Positions 5,268 to 63,580 of a stretch of DNA of 64,000 bases are shown one piece after another. The position numbers were made by a program, and so were the translations under genes. Source of the stretch: an uncultured Actinomycetes bacterium (GTDB lineage: Bacteria > Actinomycetota > UBA4738 > HRBIN12); contig OY969934.1 of NCBI GenBank assembly GCA_963704725.1, positions 2,112,001-2,176,000 of the forward strand, given 5' to 3'. The notes under the pieces are model-generated. The model worked only from the letters and a program-made list of their open reading frames with translations, made no database searches and was not told the DNA's origin. Position 1 is the stretch's first letter, and the number at the start of each line of letters is the position of its first letter.

Positions 5268-5429
5268 TCAGGTGCCCAGGACCGCGAACCCGAGCGAGCG
5301 CGCCGCCTGGGCCAGGCGGAGGTCGAACGTGACGATCGGGAGCGAGCGAGCACCGGCTCGCTCGGCCGCGGCGAGGTGGAGCGCATCCAGCGTTCGCGCA
5401 CCGGCGACCGACCCGAGAGCGGCGGCCTC
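5268..5429 (-). pseudogene. C-terminal remnant of a PIN-domain (VapC-like) toxin
   Basis: Minus frame reads EAAALGSVAGARTLDALHLAAAERAGARSLPIVTFDLRLAQAARSLGFAVLGT*, with the typical PIN C-terminal RTLDALHLA and TFDxRL motifs. No in-frame start codon upstream. Confidence 0.7.
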
Positions 5430-5649: not shown

Positions 5650-5659
5650 GGTTCGAGCG

Positions 5660-6040: not shown

Positions 6041-6141
6041 CGTTCGGTCTCCTCTGGTCGGAGTTCGGGAAGCGGCATCATATCCGCCTGGGCGGGCGTG
6101 CCCACGGGTCGACCTCGCCCCGGAGCTCGGAGCGGACGGCG

Positions 6142-8771: not shown

Positions 8772-8774
8772 CCT

Positions 8775-9665: not shown

Positions 9666-9667
9666 GG

Positions 9668-10789
9668 CTACACCGCTCCGGCGGGTTCGCGAGCGCCCGC
9701 TGCCGCTCGCTCCAGGATCGCCGAGATCTGCTCGTCGAACTCACGGACGTCGAAGCGCTCCGCGTGGGTTCGGATCGTCGTCACGTCGTATGCATCGGGA
9801 TCGAACCGGAACATGGCCGCGGCGAGCGCCTGCGGGCACGGGTCGTCGTAGAGGGCGCCCGTCCGACGGTCGACGACGGCCTCCCGCGCGCCGCCGACAC
9901 CGAACGCGATGACCGGCGTGCCGCAGGCCTGGGCCTCGACCATCGTCATGCCGAAGTCCTCCACGCCCGGCACGACGAGGGCCCGCGCGCCCCGGTACAG
10001 CTCGCGCAGGGTCGCCCGGTCCGGGCTCGACACGAACTCGGTCTCGGGGCCCGCCAGGCGCCGGAGTCGGGCGAGCTCGGGTCCATCACCCGCGACGACC
10101 AGCTTGGCCCCCGCGAGCTGCGCCGCTCGGATGGCGGTCTCCACCCGCTTGTAGGCGACGAGTCGCCCGGCGACGAGGAAGGAATCGCCGCGCGGCGCAT
10201 CGGCGCCCGGGGTCCAGTACGACGTGTCCACAGGGGGGTACACGACCGTGGCTTCCCGGCCGTACGCCGTCCGGATCCGATCGGCCACGTGGCGGGAGTT
10301 CGCGACGAACACGTCCACGCGTCTCGCCCACGCTCGGTCGGCGCGGCGGAGGGCGGCGGCCACGAGCGGCCAGACCGGCCGCGCCGGGCCGGGCACGCGG
10401 CGGATCTCCTCGCGCCACGCCCAGGCGTATCGCATCGGGGTGTGGCAGTAGGTGATGTGCACCGCGCCCTCCGGCACCCGGATCGCGTTGACGCATGCGT
10501 GCGAGCTCGTGACGACGACGTCGAACCCCCGAAGGTCCAGGCGCGACCACGCCCCCGGCATGACCGGGAGGTACCGCTGCCAGTGATGTCGGGCGGACCG
10601 GCGCATCCCCGTGCGGTGCACGTGGACGCGGCGCCCGGGGAAGAGCTCCGCGGCCAGCTCGGGCCGAGCCGTGAACGTGAAGACGTCGCTCGCGTCCGCG
10701 ACCCGGGCCAGACGCGCCGCCACCTGCTCGGATCCGCCGTACGTCGTGACCCACTCGTGACAGAGCGCGACGCTCAGCCCCTCCATCAC
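9668..10789 (-). CDS. GT4 glycosyltransferase (mannosyltransferase-like)
   Basis: HEW..GGSE, YCHTPMRYAW, GRLVAYKR, EDFGMTMVEAQACG. Confidence 0.9.
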   Translation of the reverse strand: MMEGLSVALCHEWVTTYGGSEQVAARLARVADASDVFTFTARPELAAELFPGRRVHVHRTGMRRSARHHWQRYLPVMPGAWSRLDLRGFDVVVTSSHACVNAIRVPEGAVHITYCHTPMRYAWAWREEIRRVPGPARPVWPLVAAALRRADRAWARRVDVFVANSRHVADRIRTAYGREATVVYPPVDTSYWTPGADAPRGDSFLVAGRLVAYKRVETAIRAAQLAGAKLVVAGDGPELARLRRLAGPETEFVSSPDRATLRELYRGARALVVPGVEDFGMTMVEAQACGTPVIAFGVGGAREAVVDRRTGALYDDPCPQALAAAMFRFDPDAYDVTTIRTHAERFDVREFDEQISAILERAAAGAREPAGAV

Positions 10790-10799
10790 GTTCTCCCCT

Positions 10800-12224
10800 T
10801 CAGCCCGCGTTGCGTCCGCGAAGGACCTCGACCACCGTCCGCAGCGTGATCCCGACGTCCAGCATCAGCGACCAGTGCTCGATGTATCGGTTGTCCGCAT
10901 CCACCCTGGGACCCAGCTCGGTGTCCCCCCGCAAACCGGTCACCTGGGCCAGACCCGTGATGCCCGGGCGGATCCGGTGGCGGTGGCGGTAGGCGGCCAC
11001 GCTCTCGTTGAACTCCTCGACGAACGGCGGGCGCTCCGGGCGGGGGCCGACGATGCTCATGTCGCCCACCAGCACGTTCCACAGCTGCGGCAGCTCGTCG
11101 AGGCTCGACGTGCGAAGGATCCGCCCGAGGCGCGTCCGACGGGGATCGGCCTTCACCGCCCACACGGGACCGGTGTCCCGCTCCGCGTCCTCCTCCATCG
11201 TCCGGAACTTCCACATCCGGAACACGCTCCCCGCCCTGCCGACCCGCTCTTGCCGATACAGCACCGGCCGTCCGGACGTGACGAGGATGGCGAGGGCGAC
11301 GAAGAGCATGGGCAGTGCGAGGATCACCAGCAGGAACGCCGAGACGGTCAGGTCGTACACCCGCTTCTCGAACGCATGGATCCCGATCAGCGCCGGCGGC
11401 GACACCTTCACGATCGTGCGGCCGTCGAGCTCGCGCGTCGTGAGGCGGTCGGTGGCCACGGAGCGAACGGGGCTCGCCACGTACACCGGGAACCCGGCCC
11501 CGCCGGCCTGCACCACGAGCTCCCACACGTCCTCGCTGGGGCGGGTGTCGGCCTGCAGCAGGATCCCCGGCACGCTCCTCCACCGGCCGGCCCGGCCGTG
11601 CACGACCGAGTCCAGGTACGGGCCGAGCTCCTCGGCCGTCAAGCGCGCGATCACCTCGAACTCGTCGCTCGCCGGCTCCGGCCCGGTCCCGCCGACGAGC
11701 ACGACGGGCCGCCGCAGCCGGCCGCGCGCCCGGGTCCGCGCGACGAGCCCCCGAGCCAGTCGGCGCTCGACCACCAGGAGCAGGAACGACAGCGCGGCAA
11801 CCAGGACGAACCAGCCGCGGGACACCGCGATCATGTGGAGGAGGAACACCGCCGTGGCCACGATCGCCACGCCCTCGATGACGGAGGTCCGGATCCTGGC
11901 GGTCTCCCCGCGCGGGGATGCGAGCGTGTCTTCGTCGTACAGCCGCTGCGCCGCCATGATCGACACCACGGCGACCCCCCACAACACGGATGCGATCGCG
12001 TGTCCGGGCAGGTCGAGCGGCACGTCGCGCGCGACCTGAAGCACGCCGAGACCGAACCGCAGGGCGAACGCGAGCCCGATCGCGGCGCCGATGGCCGCGA
12101 GGTCGGCGACCAGACGCGCGATGACGAGCGTCGTCTCGCCCCGATCGGACGCGTGCGCCCGATCGACTCCTCTCGATCCCGCCGCCCCGACGGCGGGCGT
12201 GGTGGTCGAGGGCCTCGAAGCCAT
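10800..12224 (-). CDS. Polyprenyl-phosphate sugar phosphotransferase (WcaJ/WbaP-like priming transferase)
   Basis: Four N-terminal TM segments; KFRTM, DPR, SLDELPQLWNV, GDMSIVGPRPE, PGITGLAQV; ATG 12224 has a GGAGG SD (an alternative start is 12260). Confidence 0.92.
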   Translation of the reverse strand: MASRPSTTTPAVGAAGSRGVDRAHASDRGETTLVIARLVADLAAIGAAIGLAFALRFGLGVLQVARDVPLDLPGHAIASVLWGVAVVSIMAAQRLYDEDTLASPRGETARIRTSVIEGVAIVATAVFLLHMIAVSRGWFVLVAALSFLLLVVERRLARGLVARTRARGRLRRPVVLVGGTGPEPASDEFEVIARLTAEELGPYLDSVVHGRAGRWRSVPGILLQADTRPSEDVWELVVQAGGAGFPVYVASPVRSVATDRLTTRELDGRTIVKVSPPALIGIHAFEKRVYDLTVSAFLLVILALPMLFVALAILVTSGRPVLYRQERVGRAGSVFRMWKFRTMEEDAERDTGPVWAVKADPRRTRLGRILRTSSLDELPQLWNVLVGDMSIVGPRPERPPFVEEFNESVAAYRHRHRIRPGITGLAQVTGLRGDTELGPRVDADNRYIEHWSLMLDVGITLRTVVEVLRGRNAG

Positions 12225-49331: not shown

Positions 49332-49355
49332 CTACCCGTTCCCCCCAGGTGAAAC
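49332..49355 (-). promoter_or_regulatory. SigB/SigF-like promoter upstream of the anti-sigma gene
   Basis: Minus strand GTTTCA-N12-GGGTAG overlapping the CheR stop. Confidence 0.55.
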
Positions 49356-51188
49356 GCCCCCGGCGTCGTCGCTCTCCATGAGCAGGATGACGCCGGCCCG
49401 CGCGCCGTCGTCGTCGAAGCGCGAACACGTGATGCGGCACCGGATCCCGCGACCGCGGCGATTGGTGGCGTCGACGACGAGGGTGTCCCCTTGGGGATCG
49501 CCGGCCAGCACGCGGCGGATCTGCTTGCGCACCGGCTCGAGGGGCAGCCCGACGTCCAGGTTGAGGAACGGCTGCCCGCGGACCTCCTCGTAACGCAGGC
49601 CCCACAGGTCCTCGCTCGCGCGATTCCACATCCGGACGCGGAGGTCCGCGTCGAGCACGACGACGCCGGCTCGGACGCCGCCGAGGATCGAGGCCAGGAA
49701 CCCGTTGAGGCCGGTCACCTCCCGCGACCGGTGGTCGAGCTCGAGGTTCACCGCCCGAAGCTCCTCGTTCGTGGACTGGAGCTCCTCGTTCACGGTCTGG
49801 AGCTCCTCGTTCGTGGACTGGAGCTCTTCGTTCGTCGTCTCCAGCTCCTCGTTGGTGGACTGGAGCTCTTCGTTCGTCGTCTCGAGCTCCTCGTTGGTGG
49901 ACTGGAGCTCCTCCATCGCCGTCTCGAGCTCCTGGTTCGACTCCTCGACATCGCGTTGGAGTTGCCGAGCCTCCGAGACGTCCACGAACGAGACCGCGAT
50001 CCCCTGCTGGCCGCCCGGACCGTCGAGCGAGGCGACCTCGACGTCGAACGTCGACGGCGGCTCGCCCGGAGGCCCGAACCGCACGCCGAGGATCTTCACC
50101 GTCTCGCGGGTGCGGCTCGTCTCCTCGATCGGTCCGCGGAGATCCGCCGGCCGCTCGGAGACGTCGAGATCCTCAAGCGGTCTGCCCAGGTCGTCCTGGC
50201 GAAGCCCGAACAGGAGCGAGGCGCGTCGATTGGCCATGAGGAGGCGGCGCTCGGGGCTCACCAGGATCTGCGCCACGGCCGCCTCCTGGAACGCGATCCG
50301 GGACAGTCGGGGCGTCCCGTCCTGGGGCTCGTCCGGTCCCACCGCCCACGGCGGAGCCGGCTGCGCGTGCTCCCGACTCCCCTCCTTCGCGAACACGCGC
50401 CGCTTCACGTCGACCGGGACGAACGTCGGGATCCGCGTGAACAGCATCTCCGACTTGCCCAGCAGCAGCAGCCCGTCCGGGTTCAGGCTGAACCGGAAGC
50501 GGTCGAGCACGTGGGCCTGCGTCTCCGCGTTCAGATACATGAGCGTGTTCCGGCAGGAGATGAGATCCGTCTTGCTGATCGGGGCGTCCTGCACCAGGTC
50601 GTGCCGGCCGAAGACGAGGGCATGGCGGAGGTCTCGCCGGAACTCGAATCCCTCCCGCGTGCGCTTGAAGAACCGCTCCACGCGCCCGGGCTCGACCGGC
50701 TCGACCGCCTTCGCCGAGTACGCGCCCTGCCGGGCCGCCGCGACCGCCTCGTCGTCGGCGTCCGTCGCGTAGATCTTCACCCGCGCCTGGAAGGCGTCGT
50801 CGCCCATCCGCTCGGCGAAGAGCATCGCGATCGAGTACGCCTCCTCGCCGCTCGCGCATCCGGCGCACCACACGCGGATCGGGGCGTCGTCCGTCGCACG
50901 GGCGATGCGGGGCACGACCTCCTCCGCCAGGTACTCCCAGACCTGCGGGTCGCGGAAGAACGACGTGACGTTGATGAGGATGAAGTTGAAGAGCTCGGTG
51001 AACTCCTCCTGGTGAACCTCGAGGTAGTCGACGTAGCTCGCGAACCCCTGCACGCCGAGGGCGTCCATGCGCCCGAGGACGCGCCGCATCAGGCTGGAGC
51101 GCTTGTAGCCCGTGAAGTCGAAGCCTCGCGAGGTCCGCAGGAACTCGAGCAGGTCCTCGAACGCCTCGTCCCGCTCGGGCTCCGCCAT
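49332..51188 (-). CDS. CheR-type methyltransferase fused to PAS-coiled coil-PAS (non-chemotaxis type)
   Basis: INVTSFFRD, WCAGCASGEEAYS, ATD, CRNTLMY, LGKSE; EELQSTN heptads; C-terminal PAS (WNRASEDLWG); no kinase domain. Confidence 0.9.
   Translation of the reverse strand: MAEPERDEAFEDLLEFLRTSRGFDFTGYKRSSLMRRVLGRMDALGVQGFASYVDYLEVHQEEFTELFNFILINVTSFFRDPQVWEYLAEEVVPRIARATDDAPIRVWCAGCASGEEAYSIAMLFAERMGDDAFQARVKIYATDADDEAVAAARQGAYSAKAVEPVEPGRVERFFKRTREGFEFRRDLRHALVFGRHDLVQDAPISKTDLISCRNTLMYLNAETQAHVLDRFRFSLNPDGLLLLGKSEMLFTRIPTFVPVDVKRRVFAKEGSREHAQPAPPWAVGPDEPQDGTPRLSRIAFQEAAVAQILVSPERRLLMANRRASLLFGLRQDDLGRPLEDLDVSERPADLRGPIEETSRTRETVKILGVRFGPPGEPPSTFDVEVASLDGPGGQQGIAVSFVDVSEARQLQRDVEESNQELETAMEELQSTNEELETTNEELQSTNEELETTNEELQSTNEELQTVNEELQSTNEELRAVNLELDHRSREVTGLNGFLASILGGVRAGVVVLDADLRVRMWNRASEDLWGLRYEEVRGQPFLNLDVGLPLEPVRKQIRRVLAGDPQGDTLVVDATNRRGRGIRCRITCSRFDDDGARAGVILLMESDDAGGVSPGGNG
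49758..49940. repeat. Imperfect 21-bp tandem repeats (about 9 heptads, NEELQST/NEELETT)
   Basis: Repeated gagctc(c/t)tcgtt units at a 21-nt period. Confidence 0.9.
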
Positions 51189-51766
51189 CAGCGCTTCGCC
51201 CCGACACAGAGATCGACGAGCCGGCCGCCGATCCGGTCGAGGGGGAGCACCAGGTCCACGACACCGGTGGCGACCGCCGCCCCGGGCATCCCCGGGAACT
51301 CCGCGTCCTGGTCTTGAGCGATCACCAGTCCCCCCGTCTGCTTGATCGCCGTGACGCCCAGCGAGCCGTCCACGCCCGTCCCGGACAGTACGACGGCGAT
51401 CGCCCGCCCCCGGTACGCGGCGGCCACCGATTCGAAGAGCAGGTCCGCGGACGGGCGGACGAAATGGACGAGCTCGGTCTGCGTGAGCGAGATCGTCCCG
51501 TCGGCGTCCACGAGCAGGTGGTGGTCCGGAGGGGCGACGACCACGCGGGAGGGACGTGCCGGCTCGCCGTCGACCGCCTCCACCACCTCGAGGGCGCACC
51601 GCCGGGCCAGCAGCGGAGCCATCAGGCTCGAGTGGTGCGGATCGAGATGCTGGACGACGAAGATCACCGCGGGGAAGCCGGCAGGGAGCGAGCTCAGCAC
51701 CACGGTGAGGGCATGGAGACCTCCCGCGGAGGCCGCCATGGCGATCGCGCGGTGCTCCTCGTTCAT
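51188..51766 (-). CDS. Stand-alone CheB methylesterase (no receiver domain)
   Basis: ASAGG (Ser), VQH (His), RPSAD.LF.S, LSG.G.DG (Asp), AQD, GMP; 1-nt overlap with cheR. Confidence 0.9.
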   Translation of the reverse strand: MNEEHRAIAMAASAGGLHALTVVLSSLPAGFPAVIFVVQHLDPHHSSLMAPLLARRCALEVVEAVDGEPARPSRVVVAPPDHHLLVDADGTISLTQTELVHFVRPSADLLFESVAAAYRGRAIAVVLSGTGVDGSLGVTAIKQTGGLVIAQDQDAEFPGMPGAAVATGVVDLVLPLDRIGGRLVDLCVGAKR

Positions 51767-51830
51767 CTGCTCACCGGCCCCGGGCCGCCTCGCGAGGTCT
51801 CCTCCGCGCGAGCATCGCCCTGCCGGCAGC

Positions 51831-52325
51831 CTATCGGGACCCCGGGGCGTGCGGCGCCCTCGAGATCAGGGTCCGCAGGACCTGGCGCCGTAGGCGGCGG
51901 ACCTCCGGGAGCCGGCGGCCGACCTGCGCCCGGATCGCGAGACCGGTCTTCGCGAGGCGCCGGGCGACGGCGGAGCGCGCAGCCGATCGGAGCCACGCGC
52001 GTGGTGCCGATCCCGGCTCCGGCCGTTCCTCGACCGACAGGTTCGGAGGCAGCGCGTCGGTCAGCAGGCGCAGCACCCCGGCGACGTTCGGTCTCGCCGA
52101 GACCGCCACCACCCGGCGATCTGGGTCGGCCGCGGCCACGGCGGCGAGCGAGCGCACGCCGGAGGCGTCGATGAACGTCAGCTCACTCAGGTCCAGCACC
52201 AACGGATCGCCGCGCTGGACGGCGCGCGCAGCCAGCTCCGCCAGCAGGTACGAGGTCCCGGCGTCCAGCTCCCCGCGCAGCCGGACGCCGTCGTCACCGG
52301 CGTCCTCGACACGGAGCAGATCCAC
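51831..52325 (-). CDS. STAS-domain anti-sigma antagonist with a basic C-terminal extension
   Basis: LRGELD, LVLDLSELTFIDASG. Confidence 0.8.
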   Translation of the reverse strand: MDLLRVEDAGDDGVRLRGELDAGTSYLLAELAARAVQRGDPLVLDLSELTFIDASGVRSLAAVAAADPDRRVVAVSARPNVAGVLRLLTDALPPNLSVEERPEPGSAPRAWLRSAARSAVARRLAKTGLAIRAQVGRRLPEVRRLRRQVLRTLISRAPHAPGSR

Positions 52326-52367: not shown

Positions 52368-53429
52368 CTACGCGCCTTCGCCGGATCCGTCTATCCCCGC
52401 ACGGGCCGACTCGAGCACCTCCATGACCTCGACCGCTTCCGCCAGCGCGACCGGAGGGTCCGTCCCCCCGCGGATCGAACGCGCGACCTCCACGTAGAAC
52501 GCCGGGTAGTCGCCCCGCTCCGTCGGGACCGCCTCGCTCTGCTCGCCCCGGTGGATGCGGCCCCATCGTTCGGACGGTTCCTCGCCGTATCCGGGGTCGC
52601 CGGGCATCCGGCCGGCGCTCATCTGCTCCTCCTGGGGATCGAGCCCCCACTTCACGTAGGCGCCGGCGAGACCGAGGACCCGGTAGCGCGGCCCGAGGGC
52701 CCCGGCGACGGCGCTCATCCACAGGTGGCTGATCTGCCCGCCGGGGTGCCGGAGGGCGACGAACGCGTCGTCGTCCACCTCGGCCTCGGGCCGGCGCCGT
52801 TCGACCTCGCCGTGGACGTGCACCGGCCGGCCGAACAACCGGATCGCCTGGTCCACCAGGTGACTCCCGAGGTCCAGGAGCAGCCCGCCGCCGTCCTCGG
52901 CCGCCCCGAGCTCGCGCCACGCGCCCGCCTCGACCTCGGGTCGCCACCGCTCGAACCGCGACTCGAACCGCGTCACGGTGCCGAGCGCGCCCGTCTCGAC
53001 CAGACGCTTCACGGTGAGGAAGTCCCCGTCCAGGCGGCGATTCTGGAACACCGTGCACACGAGACCCCGGCCCTCGGCGGCAGCGGCCAGCCGCCGGGCC
53101 TCCGCCGCCGTCGGCGCGAGCGGCTTGTCCACGACGACGTGGAGCCCGGCCTCCAGCGCGGCCAGGGCGATCGGCACGTGCGATCGATTGGGCGTGCTGA
53201 CGACGACGAGGTCGTGGTCTTCCGCGGCGGCCCACAGCGCGTCGACATCGGGCACGACACGTGCGCCGGGGTGGCTCGCCCTCGCTCGCGCGGCGCGCTC
53301 GGGGTCCGCCGTGACGATCGAGGCCAGCGTCAGATCGGGCACGGCCTCCACGAGCGGCGCGTGGAACACGGAGCCGCCGAGCCCGTAGCCGACGACCGCC
53401 GTCCGGATCGGTGCCGCCTGGGAGCTCAT
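52368..53429 (-). CDS. Gfo/Idh/MocA oxidoreductase (YdgJ-like)
   Basis: VVGYGLGG..FHAP, TPN..H, VVDKP, FQNRR.DGDF, DLGSHLVDQ, DPQE. Confidence 0.9.
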   Translation of the reverse strand: MSSQAAPIRTAVVGYGLGGSVFHAPLVEAVPDLTLASIVTADPERAARARASHPGARVVPDVDALWAAAEDHDLVVVSTPNRSHVPIALAALEAGLHVVVDKPLAPTAAEARRLAAAAEGRGLVCTVFQNRRLDGDFLTVKRLVETGALGTVTRFESRFERWRPEVEAGAWRELGAAEDGGGLLLDLGSHLVDQAIRLFGRPVHVHGEVERRRPEAEVDDDAFVALRHPGGQISHLWMSAVAGALGPRYRVLGLAGAYVKWGLDPQEEQMSAGRMPGDPGYGEEPSERWGRIHRGEQSEAVPTERGDYPAFYVEVARSIRGGTDPPVALAEAVEVMEVLESARAGIDGSGEGA

Positions 53430-53491
53430 GCGGCCGGCCTCGTCGTGCGGCAAGATGCCGGGACCTGACAGCCGAACGAAGGGAGCGAACG

Positions 53492-54199
53492 ATGACCGAT
53501 CTGAGCGGCAGGGTGGCCTTCGTCACGGGGGCGAGCCGGGGCATCGGCGCGGCGGTGGCCGGCGCGCTGTCCGAGCGCGGCGTCCACCTCGGGCTGGCGT
53601 CTCGCAGCGGCGACGACCTGGGGATCGACGGAGCCGTGGCCGGCCCGTGCGACGTCCGCGACCCGGCGGCCGTCGACGCCCTGGTCGCCCGGACCGTGGA
53701 GCGCTTCGGCGGGCTGGACATCGTCGTGGCCAACGCCGGCGTGGGCGGCTACGGCCCGTTCCTCGAGATGCCCCTCGACCAGATCGAGGAGATCCTCGAC
53801 GTGAACGTGAAGGGCACCTTCCACACGGTCCGCGCCACGCTCCCCCACCTGCTCCGCAGCGACGCCGCCGACCTGGTCACGGTGGCCTCCGAGGCGGGCC
53901 GGCGGGGGCTCCCCTTCGAGGCGACCTACTGCGCCTCGAAGTTCGCCCAGGTGGGGCTGACCCGGGCGCTCGATCACGAGCTGCGACCGCAGGGCGTCCG
54001 CTGCACCAACGTGTGCCCGGGCGGCGTCGCGACCGACTTCGCGATGGGGCGCGGCCGCACGCCCGACATGCCCGAGCTCGCCGGGATGATGGCGGCCGAG
54101 GACGTGGCCGAGGCCGTCGTGTTCGTGCTGACCCGGCCGAGGAACCACCGCATCCTCGAGATGGCGTTCCGCCCGGTGACCGAGGATTCGTGGGGATGA
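53492..54199 (+). CDS. Short-chain dehydrogenase/reductase
   Basis: TGASRGIG, ANAG, YCASK, PGGVATDF. Confidence 0.9.
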   Translation: MTDLSGRVAFVTGASRGIGAAVAGALSERGVHLGLASRSGDDLGIDGAVAGPCDVRDPAAVDALVARTVERFGGLDIVVANAGVGGYGPFLEMPLDQIEEILDVNVKGTFHTVRATLPHLLRSDAADLVTVASEAGRRGLPFEATYCASKFAQVGLTRALDHELRPQGVRCTNVCPGGVATDFAMGRGRTPDMPELAGMMAAEDVAEAVVFVLTRPRNHRILEMAFRPVTEDSWG

Positions 54200-54227: not shown

Positions 54228-55715
54228 TCACCCCATGGCGTGGAAGGTCTCGGCGAGCGCCGGGTACAGACCGCGGTAGCGGGCGTACCCCTCCGCGTAG
54301 CCCTCCACGGCGCCCGAGGGCTCCACGGCGTTCCCGACCTCGACGAGGCGCCGGCACGCGTCCTCGACCCCGTCGAACCACCCGACGCCCACGGCGGCGA
54401 GCATCGCGGCGCCCTGGGCCGCGCCCTCCGAGCCCGTGGCGGTGACCACCGTCGTGCCCAGCACATCCGCCAGGATCGACCGCCACAGGGCGCTCTTGCT
54501 GCCGCCCCCCGTCGCCCGGATCTGCGTGAACCCGCCGAGCCCGACGGCCCGCATCAGCTCGAGCGAGTCGCGGAGCCCGAACGCCACGCCCTCGAGCACG
54601 GCGCGGGTGAGGTGCGGCCGTCCGTGGTGCACCGTGAGCCCCACGAACCCGCCTCGGGCGAGCGGGTCCGGGTGGGGGGTTCGCTCGCCCGTGAGATACG
54701 GAAGGAACAGGAGGCCGTCGCTCCCCGCCGGCACGGCCTCGGCCTCCGCCGTGAGCTCGTCGAACGCGGTCCCGGGCGCGACGGCGTCCCGGTACCACCG
54801 CAGGCTGCCCGCGGCCGAGAGCATCACGCCCATCACGTGCCACCGGCCCGGCACAGCGTGGCAGAAGGCGTGCAGCCGCCCCTGCGGCTCGATCAGCGGA
54901 CCGTCCGTCGTGGCGAACACCACGCCGGAGGTTCCGAGCGACAGCGAGACGATCCCTGGCTCGACGGCTCCGACGCCGACGGCCGCCGCGGCCTGGTCGC
55001 CCCCGCCGGCCACGATCGGCGTGCCCGCTCGGAGCCCGGTCGCGGCGGCGGCCTCCGCGGAGACCACCCCGGTGACCGCCGGGCCCTCGTAGGTCGTCGG
55101 CAGCCATGCGCGCTCGATGCCGAGGGCGTCCAGGACCTCCACCGACCAGTCCCGGGCGGCCAGGTCGAACAGGAGCGTGCCGGCCCCGTCCGCGCAGTCG
55201 ACCGCGAGGTCGCCGCTCAGGTGGAAGCGGACGAAGTCCTTCGGCAGCAGGACGTGGGCGATGCGGGCCCACACGTCCGGCTCGTTCCGGCGAACCCACA
55301 GCAGCTTGGGGGCCGTGAAGCCGGTGAGCGCGTCGTTTCCGGTGATGGCGATCAGGCGATCTCGGCCGAGGGTCTCGCGGATCAGGTCGCACTCGGCCTG
55401 GGTGCGCTGGTCGTTCCACAGGATCGCCGGGCGCAAGACCTTCCCCTCGGCGTCGAGCGCGACCAGACCGTGCATCTGTCCCGTGAGGCCGACCGCCTCG
55501 ACGTCGCCCGCGCCGAGGCCGGCCCGCCCGACCGCCTCGCCGACCGCCTCGGTGGTGGCGCGCCACCAGGACTGCGGATCCTGCTCGCTCCACAGCGGGC
55601 GGGGCGTCTCGTACGGGTACTCGGCGGCCGCGGAGGCGCGGACGACGCCGCCCCGATCCAGGAGCAGCGCCTTGGTCGCCGTCGTGGAGACGTCGAGGCC
55701 GAGGACGACGCTCAC
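54228..55715 (-). CDS. xylB: Xylulokinase
   Basis: GLD.ST, TGQMHG, ILWND.R, FTAPK, GGGDQ, SLGTSG, PYL.GERTP. Confidence 0.93.
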   Translation of the reverse strand: MSVVLGLDVSTTATKALLLDRGGVVRASAAAEYPYETPRPLWSEQDPQSWWRATTEAVGEAVGRAGLGAGDVEAVGLTGQMHGLVALDAEGKVLRPAILWNDQRTQAECDLIRETLGRDRLIAITGNDALTGFTAPKLLWVRRNEPDVWARIAHVLLPKDFVRFHLSGDLAVDCADGAGTLLFDLAARDWSVEVLDALGIERAWLPTTYEGPAVTGVVSAEAAAATGLRAGTPIVAGGGDQAAAAVGVGAVEPGIVSLSLGTSGVVFATTDGPLIEPQGRLHAFCHAVPGRWHVMGVMLSAAGSLRWYRDAVAPGTAFDELTAEAEAVPAGSDGLLFLPYLTGERTPHPDPLARGGFVGLTVHHGRPHLTRAVLEGVAFGLRDSLELMRAVGLGGFTQIRATGGGSKSALWRSILADVLGTTVVTATGSEGAAQGAAMLAAVGVGWFDGVEDACRRLVEVGNAVEPSGAVEGYAEGYARYRGLYPALAETFHAMG

Positions 55716-56545
55716 GCCTCGCCGTCCTCCGTTCGGCGGAGCGTCCAACGCTCCCGGTGCGTGACCTCCTCGCCCGGCCCGAGCGTGCGCAGCGGGCCGA
55801 GCGTCTCCAGCTCGCAGAACTCGTCGCAGACGTAGACCTGGACGGCGGCCCCGCAGTCGGCGTAGGCGGCGCCTGGCCACACCTCGGTCCGCTTCTCGAA
55901 CACGTCCCGCCCGAGCTGGAAGCGCACGGCGCCGTCGCCGGGGGCCGCGCCGATCTTCACGGCCGGCCCGGGCCCGGCCCGGAGCCGGACCGCGTCACGC
56001 TCGAACGTCAGCCGCGGGTCGGCCAGATCCGTGTACGGCCACAGGACGAGCGAGCGATCGGCCTGGAGCCCCCGTCCGTTCGCTCCCAGCGGCAGGATCG
56101 CCTCGCCGCCGGGCCGGAGCTGGGTGACCGCCCACGGCGCGATCGTGAGCTCCACGCCCGAGGCGTTGCCGATCGTGTGGTCGACGGTCCATCCCCCGTC
56201 GGCCCGCCGGATCTCGATCGACTTCACCAGCCCCGCGCCGTCCGCGGGGGCCTCGACGCGGACGCCGCCGTCGACCTCGGTCGCCGCGCACGGCCGATCG
56301 TCCGGCTCGTAGGAGATCTCGGGGACCTCCGGAGCCGCCCACAGGCGGTGCCCCCCGATCAGACGGAACCGCGACCCGTCGCCGCGGTCGAGCGCGGCGT
56401 CGGGCAGGACCGCGAAGAGGTTCCCCTGCGATCCGGTCAGCCCGAGGACGCGCGGACCGAGCGACGTCGTCACGAAGACCTCGGCCCCCTCGTCCGCGAG
56501 GCGGACGCAGTCGTGCCCCTCGAACGAGACCGCCTCGAGCGTCAC
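55712..56545 (-). CDS. Uncharacterised protein, probable galactose-mutarotase-like fold
   Basis: [26 protein letters not shown]; coupled to both xylA and xylB. Confidence 0.6.
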
Positions 56546-57705
56546 CGAGCTCCCAGCAGGAGGTCGATCGTGAGCTGGTCGAGGCGCTCGTACGGCTGGC
56601 CGCGGACGCCGAGGACCCGTCGGTCGAGCTCGAGGTCGGACAGCGCCGCCGCCCGCTCGGGGGTGTACGGCCCGAGCGCCGACGCCGCGCTGCCGTCGTC
56701 CGCGTTGATCTGGGCCACGAGCTGCTGGATCTCGGGGTCGGCGTTCCAGCGCTCCGCCTTCTCCTTCAGGATCAGGTACGTGCGCATGCACCCGCGGGCG
56801 AACGCCTTCACGTCCTCGTAGTCCGACGTCCGGTACGCGTGCGCGTCGAAGTGGCGGCTGCCCGCGTAGCCGACGTCCTCCAGAAGCTTCACCAGGAAGA
56901 ACGCGGCCTTCGGGTTGGCCGAGCCGAACCGCAGGTCCTGGTCGTAGCGGCCGGGGATCTGATCGTTCAGGTCGATGTGGAACAGCTTGCCCATCGACCA
57001 CGCCTGCGCGACGTGATGGGTGAAGTTGAGCCCCGCCATGTGCTCGTGCGCGACCTCGGGGTTCACCCCGACCATCTCGGAGTGCTCGAGCGTGGAGATG
57101 AACGCGAGCATCGCGCCCGTCGTGGAGAGGTAGATGTCGCCGCGCGGCTCGTTCGGCTTGGACTCGAGGGCGAACCGCAGGTCGTACCCCTGGTCCTTCA
57201 CGTAGGCGCACAGGAAGTTCATCGCGTCCGTGTACCGCTGCAACGCGACGAGCGGGTCCTTCGACGAGTCGGTCTCGACGCCCTCGCGGCCGCCCCAGAA
57301 CACGTAGGTGGTCGCCCCCAGCTCGACGCCGAGGTCGATGGCCCGCATCGTCTTGCGGATCGCGTACGCCCGCACCCGCGCGTCGTTGGCCGTGAACGCG
57401 CCGTCGCGGAACGCCGGGTCGCGGAACAGGTTCGTCGTCGCCATGGGGACGACGAGGCCCGTCGCGTCGAGCGCCTTGCGGAAGTCGGACACGATCTGAT
57501 CCCGCTCGTGGGCACTCGCGTCGATCGGGACGAGGTCGTTGTCGTGGAAGTTGACCCCCCACGCCCCGACCTCGGCCAGCAGCTCGACGAGCTGCACCGG
57601 CGAGAGCGCCTCTCGCACGGGCTCGCCGAACGGGTCGATGCCGACGTTGCCGACGGTCCACAGCCCGAACGAGAACCGATGCTCTGCCTTCGGTTCGTAC
57701 GTCAT
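56542..57705 (-). CDS. xylA: Xylose isomerase (class I)
   Basis: [42 protein letters not shown]; GGAGG SD. Confidence 0.96.
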
Positions 57706-57770
57706 CGAACCATCACCTCCGATTGCGTGCTCCTCGACGACCCGACACTGGCCTTCGGCACGGCGGCACC

Positions 57771-59144
57771 CTATCCCGTCATCGTCATCACCCGATCCGG
57801 TCGGAGCAGGAACGGCGGCAGCCAGGCTGGGATGTTCGAGAACGGGAGCACGTCGGGATGCAGGTCGATCCCGAGCATGTCGTTCATGAACCGCAGGCGG
57901 GCCTGGATCCGCTCCCACGCCTCGGGGTGGCCGGCGGCGAACGCCCCTCGGAGCGCCTCGTCGGCGAGCGCCACCCCGTCCTCGATGTTCGTCGTGAAGT
58001 ACTCGGTTCCGGTCGCGGGGATGATGTCGACCTGCAGCGCCATGCCGGAGCGCAGCTCGACGGTCGAACCCGGCGCCACCGGGGAGTTCACCCACTCGTC
58101 CAGGTGGATCTGGTGGCCGGGGTTGAGGGAGACCCCGAAGAACGGATCGCCGAGGCGACGGCAGATGATCTCGTGCAGCGCGCCGCCTGTCTGCCCCACG
58201 TGCAGCGCCTCGTACCACGCCGCGACGGCCTCGAAGTAGGGAGCGACGAGTCGCTCGGTGTAGTCGCGGATGCCCGCCGGAAGCTCTTCCGCGTCCGCGA
58301 CGACGAACCCGGCCCGGCAGTTCAACGCGCCCCAGACGCCGAACGCGACGGTGAAGCGATCCCCTCGTTCGATCCGCCGGTCGGTCGGGCTGAGCAACCC
58401 GAGCGACGCTCGCTCGCCGCTCGACAGCATGAGGTGGCACGACAGCGGCGAGCCGTCCCACTCGAGCAGGGCCACGGCCTCGCGCTCGCGCAGGCCGGGC
58501 CGAAGGCCCGTCAGCAGCCGGCGGACGCCGGTGGAGGTCCGGCACGCGGCGGCCTCGAACGCGGCGAGCTGCTCCGGCTCGTTGATCACTCGGAGGCCGT
58601 CGGCGGCGCCGGTGAGCAGATGAGCGGCGTTGTGGACCGAGCCGGCCGGGGTCATCCCGCGGAGCACGTCCACGATGAACGCCGGCACCTCCATCACGTC
58701 GCGGTCGGCGTACTCCTTCCACCCGACGACCCCGACACGGCTTCGACCGCCGATCCCCTCCTCCGCCAGGATCTCGCCGAGCGGCCGGGAGTGGTCACGC
58801 GGCTGACCCGGCAGGCTGAAGTCCTGGAACCGGTGGCGGCGCATCGGGAGCGGCGCGGTGCCGGCCATCCCGTAGCACTCGTTCCCGACCAGCAGCGCGG
58901 GCTCGCCCGAGGGACCGACCACCAGCAGGGCCTCCTCGAATCGCGGGTCGAAGCCCGTGAGGTACGCGAGGTTCGCGCTGTGCTCCCGGTCCGCGTACAC
59001 GAGGAGCCGGTCGTAGCCGTGCTCGTCCATACGGGCCCTGAGTCGCTCGAGCCGATCCCGATAGATGGCGGCGGGGATCCCCGGCGACTCCTCGGGGACG
59101 CCGAACTCCGGGAGCCGGACCTCGGCGAGCCGTGCGGGGGCCAT
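57771..59144 (-). CDS. M24/creatinase-fold protein (aminopeptidase P-like, atypical metal site)
   Basis: Creatinase-N-like segment ([21 protein letters not shown]); pita-bread motifs NPGH.IH, VDIIP, IEDG. Confidence 0.7.
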
Positions 59145-59159
59145 CGTCCCTTCCTCCCG

Positions 59160-60854
59160 TCAGCCCTCGGGCGGAGCCCATAGCTCGGGCGCGGGCGCGC
59201 CGCGCACGATCGTCGCGAACCGGTCGGCGGCGAGGTCGAGCCACGGCCCGGTCTCCCCGTCCGGCCAGAGGACCCGGATCTGGGCCCCGCCCGCGTCGCC
59301 GAGCCCCACGTGGATCCAGCCCAGCTCGCCGCCCGCGTGACCGCCGCCGATCGTCACCTCTCGCTCGATCGTGCGGTCGCCGACCCGGACCTCGATCCAC
59401 GACCCGATGGCGTCCCGGTTGGCGCCGGGCTGCTCGAGCCGGACCGCCGCCCAGTGCCCCATCGCGACCGGCCGCGAGGCGTCGCCCGATCCCACGTTGC
59501 GGAACACGCTCACGTTCTCGCGTCGGTTCACCTGCACGAGGTCCAGCATCCCGTCGAGGTTGAGGTCGACGAGCGCGGCGCCGCGCCCCCGGACGAAGCT
59601 CGCGATCCCCGCCGCCGCGCCGCGCTCGACGAACGTCCCGTCGGAGCGGCCCAGCAGGAGGTCGCTCGGGTCCTTGGCGGCGAAGTCCGGGGTCGCCTCG
59701 ACGTTCCCCTTCGAGATGAACAGGTCGACGAGGCCGTCGTTGTTGACGTCCTGGAACTCGGGATGCCAGGCCGTGGAGGGCAGGACATCTCCCCCGGTGT
59801 AGGGGCGAGGTGCCGTGACCCCCGCTCGGAACGCGATGTCCCGATACGTGGGCCGGGCGGCCCCGTCGGCCAGCGTCTGGAGCTTGTTGTCGCCCTGACT
59901 GGTGAGGAACACCTCCGGCAGGCCGTCGCCGGTGACGTCGTAGCTCGCGATGCCCATCCCCCAGATCACCATGCGCTGCCACCCATCGGCGTGGGTGTAC
60001 GGACGCGGCGGCTCGCCGGGGGCGACGCGCCACAGCTGCTCCTCGCCGTCCAGGTAGTAGTGCCGGTCGTTGGCCATCCGCAGGTCGGCCCGACCGGACC
60101 GGTCCCAGTCGCTGAACAGGATCGACAGCGTGCACCACCCGGGCGTGAGCGCCGTCGGGGGGGCGTAGGTCCCGCCCTCGGCGCTCGGTCGCACGAGCTC
60201 GTTGTCCGCGCAGGTCGTCCGCTGGCGGTCGGCGAGGTCGAGGTAGTTGCCGAAGGCGAGGGTCGGCAATCCGGCCTGGTCCTCCCACGTCGCGCTGAAC
60301 GCCGCCGTCCAGGCATCCCCGCCGTCGACGCCCCAGCGCTCGTTGCCTCGCTCGAACCGGCAGTCCCCGAGACCGCGGAGCAGCACGTTCTCACCGAGCC
60401 GCAGGACGGCGAGGTCGATCACCCCGTCGCCGTCGATGTCGATGGGATAGGCGCCCACGACGTGGGTGAGATCGGTGACGGGATCGGGGACCTGCTCGAA
60501 CCGGAGCTCGCCCCCGACGGGGCTCTCGTTGCGATACAGCGCCGCGGGGTCGCTACCCCCGGCGAAGTAGAGATCGGGCCGTCCGTCGCCGTTGCAGTCG
60601 AACGCCGCGACGCCGCCGCCCACGAAGAACCGGAAGCCGCCGTCGTAGACGTGGTGGATGCCTGCCGCGGCGGCCTCCTCGACGAACCGCGGGGTCGCCA
60701 CCGCCGTCGCGGTCCCCGCCGACAGCACCGCGTTCGCGGCCACGACGAGGGCCAGCGCGACCACCGACCCGCCGGCCACGCCGAGGGCGAGCCAGGCGAT
60801 GGACCCCGGGCGCCACCGATCACCGCCCGCGGCACGATCCTCGACGGTGGTCAC
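59160..60854 (-). CDS. CRTAC1 / ASPIC-UnbV family membrane-anchored FG-GAP beta-propeller protein
   Basis: N-terminal TM helix; six DxD/NxDGxxD-type loops; C-terminal NRDAIG...HVGLG...WPDG; GTGA coupling to the ROK gene. Confidence 0.85.
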   Translation of the reverse strand: MTTVEDRAAGGDRWRPGSIAWLALGVAGGSVVALALVVAANAVLSAGTATAVATPRFVEEAAAAGIHHVYDGGFRFFVGGGVAAFDCNGDGRPDLYFAGGSDPAALYRNESPVGGELRFEQVPDPVTDLTHVVGAYPIDIDGDGVIDLAVLRLGENVLLRGLGDCRFERGNERWGVDGGDAWTAAFSATWEDQAGLPTLAFGNYLDLADRQRTTCADNELVRPSAEGGTYAPPTALTPGWCTLSILFSDWDRSGRADLRMANDRHYYLDGEEQLWRVAPGEPPRPYTHADGWQRMVIWGMGIASYDVTGDGLPEVFLTSQGDNKLQTLADGAARPTYRDIAFRAGVTAPRPYTGGDVLPSTAWHPEFQDVNNDGLVDLFISKGNVEATPDFAAKDPSDLLLGRSDGTFVERGAAAGIASFVRGRGAALVDLNLDGMLDLVQVNRRENVSVFRNVGSGDASRPVAMGHWAAVRLEQPGANRDAIGSWIEVRVGDRTIEREVTIGGGHAGGELGWIHVGLGDAGGAQIRVLWPDGETGPWLDLAADRFATIVRGAPAPELWAPPEG

Positions 60855-62155
60855 CGTCCGCCCCCGCCGGCGGCCCCCATCCCCGGGCTCACCCTCCGAC
60901 CGTCGACGTGGGCGGGATCGACGATCACGTGCGATAGGACGAGCTCGGACGCCCCGATGAGCCCGGCATCGGGGCCGAGACCGCTGCACACGATCGTCGC
61001 CATCTCGCCGGGAGCGTCGAGGGTCCGCCGCCGGGCTCCGTCCAGCACGGAGGGCTCGAGGAACAGGAACAGGCGCTGATAGAGCCCTCCCAGCACGACG
61101 AGATCGGGGTTGAAGAGGTTGATGAGGTTGCCGATGCCGAGTCCGAGCCACCGGCCCACCTCGGCGATCGCTCGCAGGACGGACTCGTCTCCGGCGCCGG
61201 CCCGCTCCGCCACCTCGTCGAGACGCCCGAACCCCTCACGCACCCCGACCCGACGCAGCAGCGCGGCCTCCCCGGCCTCCGTCTCCCAGCAGCCGACCGA
61301 CCCGCATCGACACTCCCGTCCGCCGGGATTGATGAGGACGTGCCCGGCCTCTCCGGCGTACCCGGCCGATCCGAGCAGGGGCTTGCCGTCCACGATCACA
61401 CCGGCGCCGATCCCGACCTCACCCGAGATGTACACGAGGTTGCCCACGGCGGGTCGGACGCGGCGGTGCTCGGCGAGGGCACCGAGATCTGCCTCGTTGG
61501 CGGCGAGGACGGGGACCCCGAGGTCGAGCTCGTCGGCGAGCATCGAGGCGAGCGGGATGTCGCGCCACCCCAGGTTCGGCGCGATGTGCACGAAGCCGTC
61601 GGACCTCCGCGTGACGCCCGCGACCGCGGCGCCGACGCCGACGAGCACGTGGGTCGCCGGGAGCGAGCCCAGGAGGGGGCCCGCCAGCTTGCCGATGTCC
61701 TGCACGGACTCCTCGGGAGAGAAGCGGTGCCGGGGCCTGGCCACTCGGATCCGGTTGTACACGTGACCGCCGAGCCCCACCGTCGCCACCGCGATCGAAT
61801 CCACCTCGACCTCGACGGCCAGGGCCACCGCCCCATCCGGCCTCGTCTGCACCATCGGCGAGGGCCGGCCCGGACCAGAGCCGGGCGACCCCGGACGTTC
61901 CTCGACCAGCCCGAGCGCGCCGAGCTCCCCCAGCAGGTCGGCCACGGTCGAGCGGTTGAGCCCGGTCATCCGGGTGAGCTCGGCGCGCGACAGCGAGCCC
62001 GTCAGGTGGAGCGGCTCGAGCACCGCCCCGAGGTTGTGCCGGCGAACCTCCTCGGCCGCCACGCCCAGTCGAAGGTCGCGGGCCCTGGCCGATTTCGTTG
62101 GAACCTCCGCGGAATCCACCATCGCTCCCACCCGATCGGATCGGCGAAGGGTCAT
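60851..62155 (-). CDS. ROK-family transcriptional repressor (XylR-like); start uncertain
   Basis: N-terminal HTH (SRAEL..TGL.RSTV), NEADLGALAE, GIGAG, GEAGH, CRCG..GCWE. Confidence 0.88.
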   Translation of the reverse strand: MTLRRSDRVGAMVDSAEVPTKSARARDLRLGVAAEEVRRHNLGAVLEPLHLTGSLSRAELTRMTGLNRSTVADLLGELGALGLVEERPGSPGSGPGRPSPMVQTRPDGAVALAVEVEVDSIAVATVGLGGHVYNRIRVARPRHRFSPEESVQDIGKLAGPLLGSLPATHVLVGVGAAVAGVTRRSDGFVHIAPNLGWRDIPLASMLADELDLGVPVLAANEADLGALAEHRRVRPAVGNLVYISGEVGIGAGVIVDGKPLLGSAGYAGEAGHVLINPGGRECRCGSVGCWETEAGEAALLRRVGVREGFGRLDEVAERAGAGDESVLRAIAEVGRWLGLGIGNLINLFNPDLVVLGGLYQRLFLFLEPSVLDGARRRTLDAPGEMATIVCSGLGPDAGLIGASELVLSHVIVDPAHVDGRRVSPGMGAAGGGGR

Positions 62156-62470
62156 CGTGCGGAGTCCCTCCCCCGAGGGGTCAGGGTATCCATTGGCTCC
62201 GGCGCACGCAAGACGCCCATCAAGCGATCGTGCCCCACCGGCGAGCAACTCCCGAGGAATTTGTTGCGCTTTCCTACTTTGCGTTGTCGCACGCGGTGTG
62301 AGATGCTCCGGCCGGTCTCCGAGCCGACCGATCCACCCAGCACGTATACGTCGACGGAGAGCTCGAACAGGCGGGGCCGATGGACCGCGGGGCAACCCAG
62401 GGCCTCGGTAGCCGCGAGGGGAAAGCGGTGATGCGGCCGACGGAGGCCGCCAACCGGAAGGGGGGAGCGA

Positions 62471-63580
62471 ATGGGCAAGCATCGCGTGTGGGCGCTCCTC
62501 GCCGTGTTTGCGTTGATCCTCGTCGCCTGTAGCGACGACAACGGCGGCGGGGGGACGACCGGCGGAGGGACGACCGGCGGAGGGACGACGAGCACCACCG
62601 GCGGCGGTGGCGACCTCGTCGTCGGCGTCTCGTGGAACAACTACAACGAAGAGCGCTGGGCCAAGTGGGACGAGCCGGCCATCAAGGAGGCGCTCGCAGC
62701 CGGCGGCGCGAGCTACATCTCGACCGACGCCGGATCCTCCGCCGAGCAACAGCTCGCGGACGTCGAGAACCTGATCTCGCAGGGCGCCAACGCGCTGATC
62801 ATCCTGGCCCAGGACGGTGAGGCCATCAAGCCGGCCGTCCAGAGCGCGCTCGAGCAGGGCATCCCGGTGGTCGCGTACGACCGCCTCATCGAGGACCCGG
62901 GAGCCCTGTACGTCACGTTCGACAACGTCGAGGTCGGGCGCCTGCAGGCGCAGGCCGTCCTCGAGCAGGTCCCGCAGGGCAACTACGTGTACATCAAGGG
63001 CAACTCCGCGGACGCGAACGCGGACTTCCTCCGCAGTGGCCAGCAGGAGGTTCTGCAGGCCGCGGAGGACGCGGGTGACATCGTGAACGTCGGCGAGACT
63101 TACACCGACAACTGGGACCCCGCACTCGCGCAGACCGAGATGGAGCAGTTCCTGACGGACAACAACAACGACGTGCAGGCGGTCGTCGCCGAGAACGACG
63201 GCATGGCCGGCGGCGTCGTCGCCGCGCTCGAGGCCCAGGGCCTGGCGGGCCAGGTGGCCGTGTCGGGACAGGACGGCGACCTCGCCGCCCTCAACCGGGT
63301 GGCTCTCGGCACCCAGACCGTGGACGTGTGGAAGGACGCCCGCGAGCTCGGAAAGGCCGCCGGAGAGGCCGCGGTGCAGCTCGCGCAGGGCACGGCACTG
63401 GCGGACGTCGCCGGCGTCGTGCAGTTCGACTCCCCAGGCGGGAACTCGATGACGTCGATCCTCCTGACGCCGATCGCGATCACGCCGGACAACCTGAACG
63501 TCGTCGTCGACGCGGGTTGGATCTCCACGGACGAGCTGTGCCAGGGCGTCGAGGCCGGCACGGTGGACGTCTGCAGCTGA
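62471..63580 (+). CDS. xylF: D-xylose ABC transporter substrate-binding lipoprotein
   Basis: Lipobox LVAC; EERW..D, AYDRLI, FDN..VG.LQA, D.NA, NW, ENDGMAGG, SGQDGD, VWKD. Confidence 0.88.
   Translation: MGKHRVWALLAVFALILVACSDDNGGGGTTGGGTTGGGTTSTTGGGGDLVVGVSWNNYNEERWAKWDEPAIKEALAAGGASYISTDAGSSAEQQLADVENLISQGANALIILAQDGEAIKPAVQSALEQGIPVVAYDRLIEDPGALYVTFDNVEVGRLQAQAVLEQVPQGNYVYIKGNSADANADFLRSGQQEVLQAAEDAGDIVNVGETYTDNWDPALAQTEMEQFLTDNNNDVQAVVAENDGMAGGVVAALEAQGLAGQVAVSGQDGDLAALNRVALGTQTVDVWKDARELGKAAGEAAVQLAQGTALADVAGVVQFDSPGGNSMTSILLTPIAITPDNLNVVVDAGWISTDELCQGVEAGTVDVCS
62546..62590 (+). repeat. 3 x 15-bp tandem repeat (GGGTT linker of XylF)
   Basis: GGCGGGGGGACGACC GGCGGAGGGACGACC GGCGGAGGGACGACG. 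Confidence 0.85.

Follow-up and report, generated by a model that had tools for sequence, protein, structure and literature searches.

Gene content of the xylose locus

The window analysed here, a stretch of 64,000 nucleotides on contig OY969934.1 (assembly GCA_963704725.1), has a GC content of 72% and belongs to the genome of an uncultured Actinomycetota lineage, which consists of a single contig of 3.45 Mb. It contains six co-oriented genes which form a xylose utilisation operon of the XylR (ROK) type, divergent from xylF (Table 1). Two of these genes, located between the regulator and xylA, are the subject of this study: one encodes a protein that resembles the propeller protein CRTAC1 (hereafter CRT), the other a protein that is remotely similar to M24 peptidases (hereafter M24-like protein). 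Taken together, our comparisons show that both belong to a conserved accessory module, mobile between phyla, that would combine an anchored, exported propeller with a translationally close protein of the so-called pita-bread fold.

Table 1. Genes and features of the xylose locus and its surroundings (positions in the window; aa, amino acids).
Feature	Position	Strand	Basis
ROK-family transcriptional regulator (XylR-like), 434 aa, first in the unit	60851..62155	-	PF00480, E 6e-46
CRTAC1-like Ca-type beta-propeller (CRT), exported, N-terminal membrane helix, 564 aa	59160..60854	-	FG-GAP_3 and UnbV_ASPIC
M24-like pita-bread protein, cytoplasmic, degenerate metal site, 457 aa	57771..59144	-	Creatinase_N and Peptidase_M24, both weak
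Class-I (Arthrobacter-type) xylose isomerase XylA, 387 aa	56542..57705	-	TIGR02631
Mutarotase-family protein, 277 aa	55712..56545	-	NF052227
Xylulokinase XylB, 495 aa	54228..55715	-	TIGR01312
xylF-type D-xylose ABC substrate-binding lipoprotein	62471..63580	+	TIGR02634
Divergent ROK/xylF intergenic region, 315 nt	62156..62470	none	sequence
SDR oxidoreductase, convergent with xylB	53411..54199	+	adh_short, E 7.5e-49
GFO/IDH/MocA oxidoreductase, adjoining the SDR gene	52368..53453	-	Pfam; NF008607, 268.8 bits (cut-off 330)

Gene models were based on codon-position GC, inspection of start codons and translation, and in all six minus-strand frames GC is distributed over the codon positions as in real genes. 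The genes are tightly packed. Read directly from the sequence, start and stop codons overlap as GTGA at the ROK/CRT, xylA/277-aa gene and 277-aa gene/xylB junctions. Between the CRT stop codon and the ATG of the M24-like gene lie 15 nt containing GGGAGGAAGGG, a strong ribosome-binding site, and the ROK ATG has GGGGGAGGG ahead of it. The M24-like gene and xylA are spaced by 65 nt, with GGAGG upstream of the xylA ATG; no terminator-like site was found in this gap, nor did a promoter scan of the region detect a promoter-like site. The two terminator-like sites that the terminator scan did return both lie within genes, and their number equals the shuffled expectation. A search of sequencing runs for expression over positions 54228-63580 listed none from RNA. 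A preliminary description of this locus had listed six co-oriented genes, three GTGA overlaps, a gap of 15 nt and the divergence from xylF, and every checkable detail of it proved correct.

The core genes are well supported by curated models. XylA (TIGR02631, 554.8 bits, cut-off 447, residues 3-384 on model positions 1-382) and XylB (TIGR01312, 576.2 bits, cut-off 380.25) both pass the equivalog cut-off. XylF aligns over its full length with TIGR02634 and scores slightly below the cut-off (379.3 versus 389.55 bits), its second-best model being ChvE with only 166.7 bits; its N-terminus is of the lipoprotein type and ends in LVAC. The ROK protein aligns with the NagC and Mlc regulator models over residues 36-397, far below both cut-offs. 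Actinobacterial xylose loci comprise a ROK-type XylR, XylFGH, a class-I XylA, XylB and a mutarotase; counterparts of XylR, XylF, XylA, XylB and the mutarotase were identified here, those of XylA, XylB and XylF scoring at or near the curated cut-offs, and the unit is divergent from xylF. In a locus of the same genus the order is xylF-xylH-xylG. What differs from such loci are the two additional genes between regulator and xylA (three in some congeners); the plain actinobacterial form xylA-mut(-xylB), where mut denotes the mutarotase gene, occurs without them in the relatives G005, G022 and G023 (G-numbers denote genomes and L-numbers retrieved loci in our comparisons with relatives and metagenomes).

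Structure of the propeller and of the M24-like protein

As the preliminary description had proposed, structure models of CRT and of the M24-like protein were compared with solved structures by Foldseek; they returned the CRTAC1 fold and the prolidase/creatinase fold, respectively.

CRT displays the layout of CRTAC1/ASPIC-UnbV proteins, namely a propeller of FG-GAP repeats (FG-GAP_3, 81 bits, E 9e-23, five stretches) followed by an UnbV_ASPIC domain (40.2 bits versus 23.4, E 3e-10), and it is the only UnbV_ASPIC protein of the genome. Its model (pLDDT 87.3) predicts a helix at residues 17-44 and thereafter propeller and beta-sandwich. The sole strong fold match is murine CRTAC1 (9etn, E 1e-23, TM 0.68); much weaker matches are integrin heads, a fungal sugar dehydratase and fungal GlcNAc lectins. 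CRT and murine CRTAC1 share the propeller with FG-GAP calcium loops and the C-terminal UnbV/ASPIC domain (TM 0.68-0.69 over 568 columns). However, CRT is only 18% identical to its animal counterpart, bears an N-terminal helix as membrane anchor and is encoded in a bacterial sugar operon. Animal CRTAC1 carries a C-terminal EGF-like domain; in contrast, no EGF family was found among the Pfam matches of CRT, even at E-values up to 10, and the protein ends right after UnbV_ASPIC. Four cysteines and several motifs are invariant among 39 CRT orthologues, which is in keeping with export and with the presence of a functional site. To our knowledge, a function has been established neither for animal CRTAC1 nor for bacterial CRTAC1-like proteins.

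The M24-like protein matches Creatinase_N (E 4e-7) and Peptidase_M24 (E 2e-5), both narrowly above the Pfam cut-offs. Its model (pLDDT 96.9) confidently predicts a prolidase/creatinase (pita-bread) fold with a Creatinase_N domain, and Foldseek returned prolidases, Xaa-Pro dipeptidases, DoeA, creatinase and DddP (TMq 0.57-0.65, 12-20% identity, probability 1.00 for prolidase). A look-up in the ESM Atlas gave just unnamed clusters of the creatinase/M24 type. The M24B enzymes compared (prolidase/Xaa-Pro dipeptidase 1wy2, 1pv9 and 5cde; creatinase 1kp0; ectoine hydrolase DoeA 6twk; DMSP lyase DddP 4b28) have the same two-domain fold, yet the M24-like protein is longer by about 80 residues and differs at the metal site. 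When aligned by HMMER with 1pv9 and 5cnx, the protein has A267 and R277 in place of the two Asp ligands and D373 in place of the first Glu, whereas H344 and E388 preserve the His and the last Glu; we take the ligands of the reference enzymes to be Asp, Asp, His, Glu and Glu in this order. Thus one His and two acidic positions persist, while the five-ligand metal set is incomplete.

This site is conserved in its altered form: R277, H344, D373 and E388 are invariant or nearly so among 62 diverse family members. The same holds true for about 50 polar residues spread over both domains, and the N-terminal domain contains the invariant motifs DREH, DPRFEE and GNE, which are not expected of a passive domain. 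The family is sizeable, with 1747 clusters at 50% clustering (E<=1e-3), 400 of them at E<=1e-30. On model and alignments, we conclude that the M24-like protein is an enzyme-like pita-bread protein that appears to be devoid of a two-metal centre and that, like creatinase, probably does not use one. Given the substitution of the two Asp ligands, a classification as M24 metallopeptidase should be avoided. Consequently, the term 'amidohydrolase-like' of the preliminary description needs to be revised, as the protein is neither a typical amidohydrolase nor a typical metallopeptidase. Assignments as DddP or as a true prolidase were considered but discarded, given that identity is low and the Asp ligands are absent.

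The same features bear on a non-enzymatic reading, in which xylose would induce the propeller as a surface receptor for matrix material of plants or microbes, and the M24-like protein would be its non-catalytic cytoplasmic partner. Integrin heads and fungal GlcNAc lectins among the fold relatives of the propeller, together with its membrane-spanning N-terminal helix, would fit to this picture, and pita-bread proteins without metal sites can indeed be non-enzymes, such as Ebp1 and Spt16. However, the predicted cytoplasmic tail of the propeller comprises only about 16 residues, and the roughly 50 conserved polar residues, including the retained H344, D373 and E388, look like an active site. We therefore regard a sensor or adhesin of this kind as very improbable.

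The gene pair in close relatives

The close relatives comprised 40 genomes which, together with the source genome, give a sample of 41 (one of them, G011, is flagged as unpublished and included in the tallies). The M24-like gene occurs in eight of these 41: the source genome, six of 13 genomes of the same genus and one genome of a sister genus. The same genomes also contain CRT, for which G003 gave one additional match, weak and partial, and each of five genomes checked contains exactly one CRT orthologue. The six retrieved loci of relatives share one layout, in which xylF is divergent from the string ROK-(VHPO-like)-CRT-M24-xylA-(mut)-xylB. Because this order recurs in all six, the gene arrangement is beyond chance.

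The bracketed VHPO-like gene encodes a predicted exported protein related to vanadium haloperoxidases and PAP2 phosphatases. It precedes CRT in 30 of the 80 loci described below and in two loci of the source genus, where it lies between ROK and CRT (L004:9823-11673 in G007 and L007:2810-4663 in G006; a gene of the 635-aa type). Both copies are 65% identical to a representative from Chloroflexota. The family contains the domains DUF6851, VCPO_2nd and PAP2, an N-terminal hydrophobic anchor and the intact motifs K-x6-RP, SGH and R-x5-H-x3-D, which we take to be those of PAP2 proteins and haloperoxidases. Its distribution suggests either loss in the source lineage or gain in others.

The gene pair across phyla

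A pattern scan with one genome per species yielded 585 relatives of the M24-like protein, of which the best 80 (64-80% identical) were analysed. Judged by record titles, these comprise 46 Chloroflexota, 24 Acidimicrobiia, four other Actinomycetota and six others or entries without phylum label. As the length- and GC3-based calling of open reading frames (ORFs) in retrieved loci is crude, and neighbour counts derived from it may miss or mis-frame genes, the main counts were obtained by tblastn with the window proteins and six further representatives.

In 77 of the 80 loci, the immediate upstream neighbour of the M24-like gene, in the same orientation, is CRT. An xylF-like gene is present in 65; if only those loci are counted whose sequence extends 8 kb or more upstream from the M24-like gene, the figure is 54 of 55. 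Further components are xylG and xylH (58 loci each), ROK (44), xylB (29) and xylA of any class (28, of which 24 are class II and four class I; NF003998 gave 694 bits for class II). The position of the pair depends on the lineage: it is found opposite xylF, behind an SDR-GFO-VHPO string, or between ROK and xylA. In L036, L040, L076, L077 and L085 it is directly divergent from xylF, and in many Chloroflexota loci it resides on the side of xylFGH that faces away from xylAB. Constant across these gene orders are the adjacency of CRT and M24-like gene and the closeness to xylFGH. The search for co-occurrence with xyl genes across phyla, as proposed in the preliminary description, was thus clearly positive, and an absence of linkage to pentose genes elsewhere, which it had named as counter-evidence, was not encountered in the orthologous clade.

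In the M24 tree, 79 orthologues fall into one clade with a support of 100, within which Chloroflexota and Actinomycetota are interleaved with four to five label changes. Consequently, the module moved between phyla.

A further gene of about 528 aa was observed downstream of the M24-like gene in 25 of the 80 loci, mostly in Acidimicrobiia and often beside a second GFO-family gene (for example L031:12978-14564 and L066:12149-13735). It has no confident Pfam family; one of two representatives gave a weak match resembling NQR2/RnfD.

Distant relatives of the M24-like protein

To broaden the view, two ORFs per side were annotated in 50 diverse metagenome loci with distant M24-like relatives. The neighbours include AA_permease proteins and glycoside hydrolases (GH) or polysaccharide lyases (PL) in six loci each, and M81 (MlrC-like) peptidases, GFO-family proteins, xylose-isomerase-like TIM barrels and CRTAC1-like proteins in five each, followed by asparaginase families (four), LacI regulators (three) and ROK regulators (two). 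Sugar catabolism and the handling of amino acids or peptides are hence the recurrent themes.

Single loci illustrate both. On a metagenome contig (L184:5317-11663), araA, araD, the M24-like gene, a CUT2 binding protein and a permease stand together, and this L-arabinose operon suggests a family-wide tie of the M24-like protein to pentose catabolism. In L119 an FGGY kinase and a TIM barrel lie beside the M24-like relative, in G703 a rhamnulose-aldolase/SDR fusion and a GFO gene are nearby, and G294 carries an arginase-family gene, 5 kb from xylB-xylA-ROK. The locus L027 of G148 (740-11698) combines a DeoR regulator, PTS EIICB and EIIA, a GH1 protein and three M81 genes around the M24-like gene, and is possibly a glycopeptide or glyco-amino-acid locus. 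M81 genes are also found beside distant M24-like relatives in L116, L117, L123, L170 and L185.

This context would also suit a metabolite repair function, in which the M24-like protein, co-expressed with pentose catabolism, clears glycated amino acids or peptides arising in cells that handle reactive pentoses, while the propeller has a separate role at the surface. The relatives indeed occur in varied pentose and deoxy-sugar loci (xyl, araA-araD in L184 and the aldolase/SDR fusion), as well as beside APC-type permeases, TIM-barrel epimerase-like genes and CUT1 ABC genes, a gene set that resembles fructoselysine (frl) loci. Furthermore, such a role would require no import of a conjugate through XylFGH. 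However, it leaves the strict association with an exported propeller (77/80) unexplained, and the M24-like family is absent from most xylose-using relatives. In addition, the deglycation routes known to us employ kinases, SIS-type deglycases or oxidases, not pita-bread enzymes. Damage control thus seems quite unlikely to us.

A GFO/IDH/MocA gene, present in 48 of the 80 loci, mostly upstream and in the same direction, leads to another scenario: this dehydrogenase might oxidise xylose or a xyloside, and the M24-like protein might hydrolyse the resulting lactone or keto-sugar derivative. The best NCBIfam match of that gene is Gfo6 D-xylose 1-dehydrogenase (134 bits, below the cut-off of 350), and GFO genes flank distant relatives in L112, L117, L135 and G703. 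In L114 the M24-like gene is located between genes of the FAA-hydrolase family and the enolase superfamily, to which the two Weimberg dehydratases belong, respectively or in reverse. In contrast, dehydratase genes are missing from the xyl loci, XylA and XylB by themselves form a full pathway, and the window contains no orthologue of that GFO gene, just the different one listed in Table 1. Moreover, we know of no pita-bread enzyme that acts as a lactonase. Taken together, we would hardly expect an oxidative side route.

Possible function of the module

We propose that organisms poor in glycoside hydrolases use the module to scavenge pentoses. The propeller, where the haloperoxidase/phosphatase-like enzyme is present, might act on xylose-bearing material at the cell surface; with this partner it would bind or chemically loosen such material before the XylF lipoprotein and the XylGH importer come into play. 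In the cytoplasm, the M24-like protein, working with a single metal or none, would hydrolyse a C-N bond in some pentose-amine compound that comes along with pentose uptake; glycated or glycosylated amino acids or peptides are candidate substrates. Free xylose would then be anomerised by the mutarotase and passed on to XylA and XylB. The assumption of C-N hydrolysis is based on the fold, which the protein shares with the C-N hydrolases prolidase, creatinase and ectoine hydrolase, and on a family context that mixes sugar genes with amino-acid and peptide genes. Almost all characterised pita-bread enzymes cleave C-N bonds, DddP being the exception. We put forward this combination of surface action and cytoplasmic hydrolysis tentatively, at clearly less than even confidence.

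Two claims of the preliminary description relate to this proposal. It had noted that no glycoside hydrolase is visible at the locus, and this extends to the whole genome for the families tested, as neither GH10 nor GH43 was found and GH3 gave a single match. Of its idea that a xylose conjugate is captured or cleaved, the linkage to xylose genes stood firm, whereas the capture or cleavage step itself gained no direct support.

Several observations speak against pentose scavenging as the purpose of the module. First, the sole transporter in the locus looks to be an importer of the XylFGH type for monosaccharides, so that there is no obvious route by which a conjugate would reach the cytoplasmic M24-like protein. 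Second, G005, G022 and G023 keep xylA-mut without the pair, which is hence dispensable for xylose catabolism, while G203 possesses ROK-CRT-M24 without xylA or xylB in the 10 kb downstream. Third, the pair is patchily distributed, with matches in nine of 401 sampled genomes of the source phylum and in 12 of 301 sampled Chloroflexota, counts that even include the distant paralogues of G148, G214, G294, G559 and G703. Fourth, orthology and transfer connect the 80 loci, which hence do not count as independent observations. Furthermore, the source genome has no match to the VHPO-like protein, and the ROK stop codon there overlaps the CRT start; many distant M24-like relatives are surrounded by unrelated housekeeping genes. 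Finally, some copies appear to be broken: the M24-like gene of L005 (G018, 9279-10652) is split into three matches with two in-frame TGA codons, and one TGA each interrupts CRT in L003 (G009, 7480-9133) and in G432:C95:5660-7303. These copies may be pseudogenes, or sequencing or assembly errors in draft metagenome-assembled genomes.

One might thus speculate that CRT and the M24-like gene, with or without the VHPO-like gene, are unrelated to xylose, for example a matter of envelope or matrix biology plus a housekeeping peptidase, and that the whole island is exchanged as a block together with xylFGH. The transfer of the clade across phyla, its patchy occurrence, the apparently broken copies and the trio of G203 without xylAB nearby all fit to such hitch-hiking. 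However, the linkage to xylF survives several gene orders, two classes of xylA and both orientations of ROK. In the source genus the module even lies inside the operon between regulator and xylA, with frames that overlap or nearly abut, and distant M24-like relatives appear again in arabinose, rhamnose-like and other sugar loci. Passenger genes are therefore an unlikely explanation, yet one to be taken seriously: if the pair is irrelevant to xylose, our finding reduces to an ordinary xylose operon with passengers.

If instead the pair does serve pentose scavenging, a more far-reaching version can be envisioned. VHPO-like protein, CRT, XylFGH and the metal-degenerate pita-bread enzyme would together represent a GH-free harvest of pentoses from recalcitrant or glycated organic matter by soil Chloroflexota and Actinomycetota: surface chemistry would free or expose the pentose, and a new class of cytoplasmic hydrolase would cleave the pentose-nitrogen linkage. 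We consider this extended version decidedly improbable.

Xylose catabolism is textbook biochemistry, yet a module of two to three genes of unassigned role is embedded in xylose loci. While the xylose utilisation locus itself is known, this conserved, horizontally mobile accessory module is undescribed: full-text literature searches, judged from titles and abstract openings, gave no description of the propeller/M24-like module, nor of the TTE1925 family discussed below. Its carriers belong to soil and freshwater lineages that are abundant and for the most part uncultured (Limnocylindria-type Chloroflexota and Acidimicrobiia), and it has been exchanged between their phyla. Bacterial CRTAC1-like propellers thereby gain an operon context and a possible regulator. 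A new enzyme activity may well reside in the pita-bread family, which is sizeable, has no two-metal site and turns up repeatedly in connection with sugar loci.

Accessory genes and regulatory element

The 277-aa protein, counted among the unexplained genes in the preliminary description, can be removed from the puzzle. It has no Pfam match above threshold, and a sequence search against solved structures found none either. However, it aligns over residues 1-269 with NF052227, the TTE1925 family of mutarotases (E 3e-44). With 151.3 bits it stays well under the equivalog cut-off of 550 and is therefore a relative of this family, not an equivalog. The gene resides between xylA and xylB in L004, L005, L011, L013 and L023. 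Of the genomes without CRT or M24-like gene, G005 (locus L011) and G023 have it there and G022 has xylA-mut, and it is missing from G010 and G009, which carry both; thus it is regular in xylA-xylB operons of relatives without the pair. A classical Aldose_epim gene instead follows the M24-like gene in 17 of the 80 loci. Judged from homology and distribution, the 277-aa gene is an unremarkable, optional addition of the mutarotase type to the xylA-xylB core. The mutarotase of L011 (G005, 10660-11470) gives two overlapping matches in different frames, and xylB of the same locus, which has no pair, is matched over residues 30-408 only; these anomalies may mean that the xyl operon is decaying or that the assembly is faulty.

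The SDR gene next to the operon also has a wider distribution. Orthologues of 69-84% identity are present in 18 of the 80 loci (xyl loci of Chloroflexota and Acidimicrobiia) and in relatives, and in L033, L054, L057, L061 and others the gene heads the string SDR-GFO-(VHPO)-CRT-M24. The GFO gene adjoining it is kept in L002, L003 and L005.

Within the ROK/xylF intergenic region, positions 62257-62290 form an AT-richer stretch with a repeated CAAC..CAAA element. Related elements of the GCAACAAA type are also found between xylF and ROK in L030, L031, L045, L051 and L063, and the element is absent from six regions where CRT, the VHPO-like gene or SDR lies opposite xylF. We regard this candidate XylR operator as a lead rather than a result.

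Further downstream, beyond the sugar genes, the minus strand at 49332-52325 carries a CheR-PAS fusion (an ORF of 755 aa), a CheB methylesterase-domain gene and a STAS-domain gene. No receptor gene is visible within the stretch scanned around this group, which resembles a methylation module of the chemosensory type.

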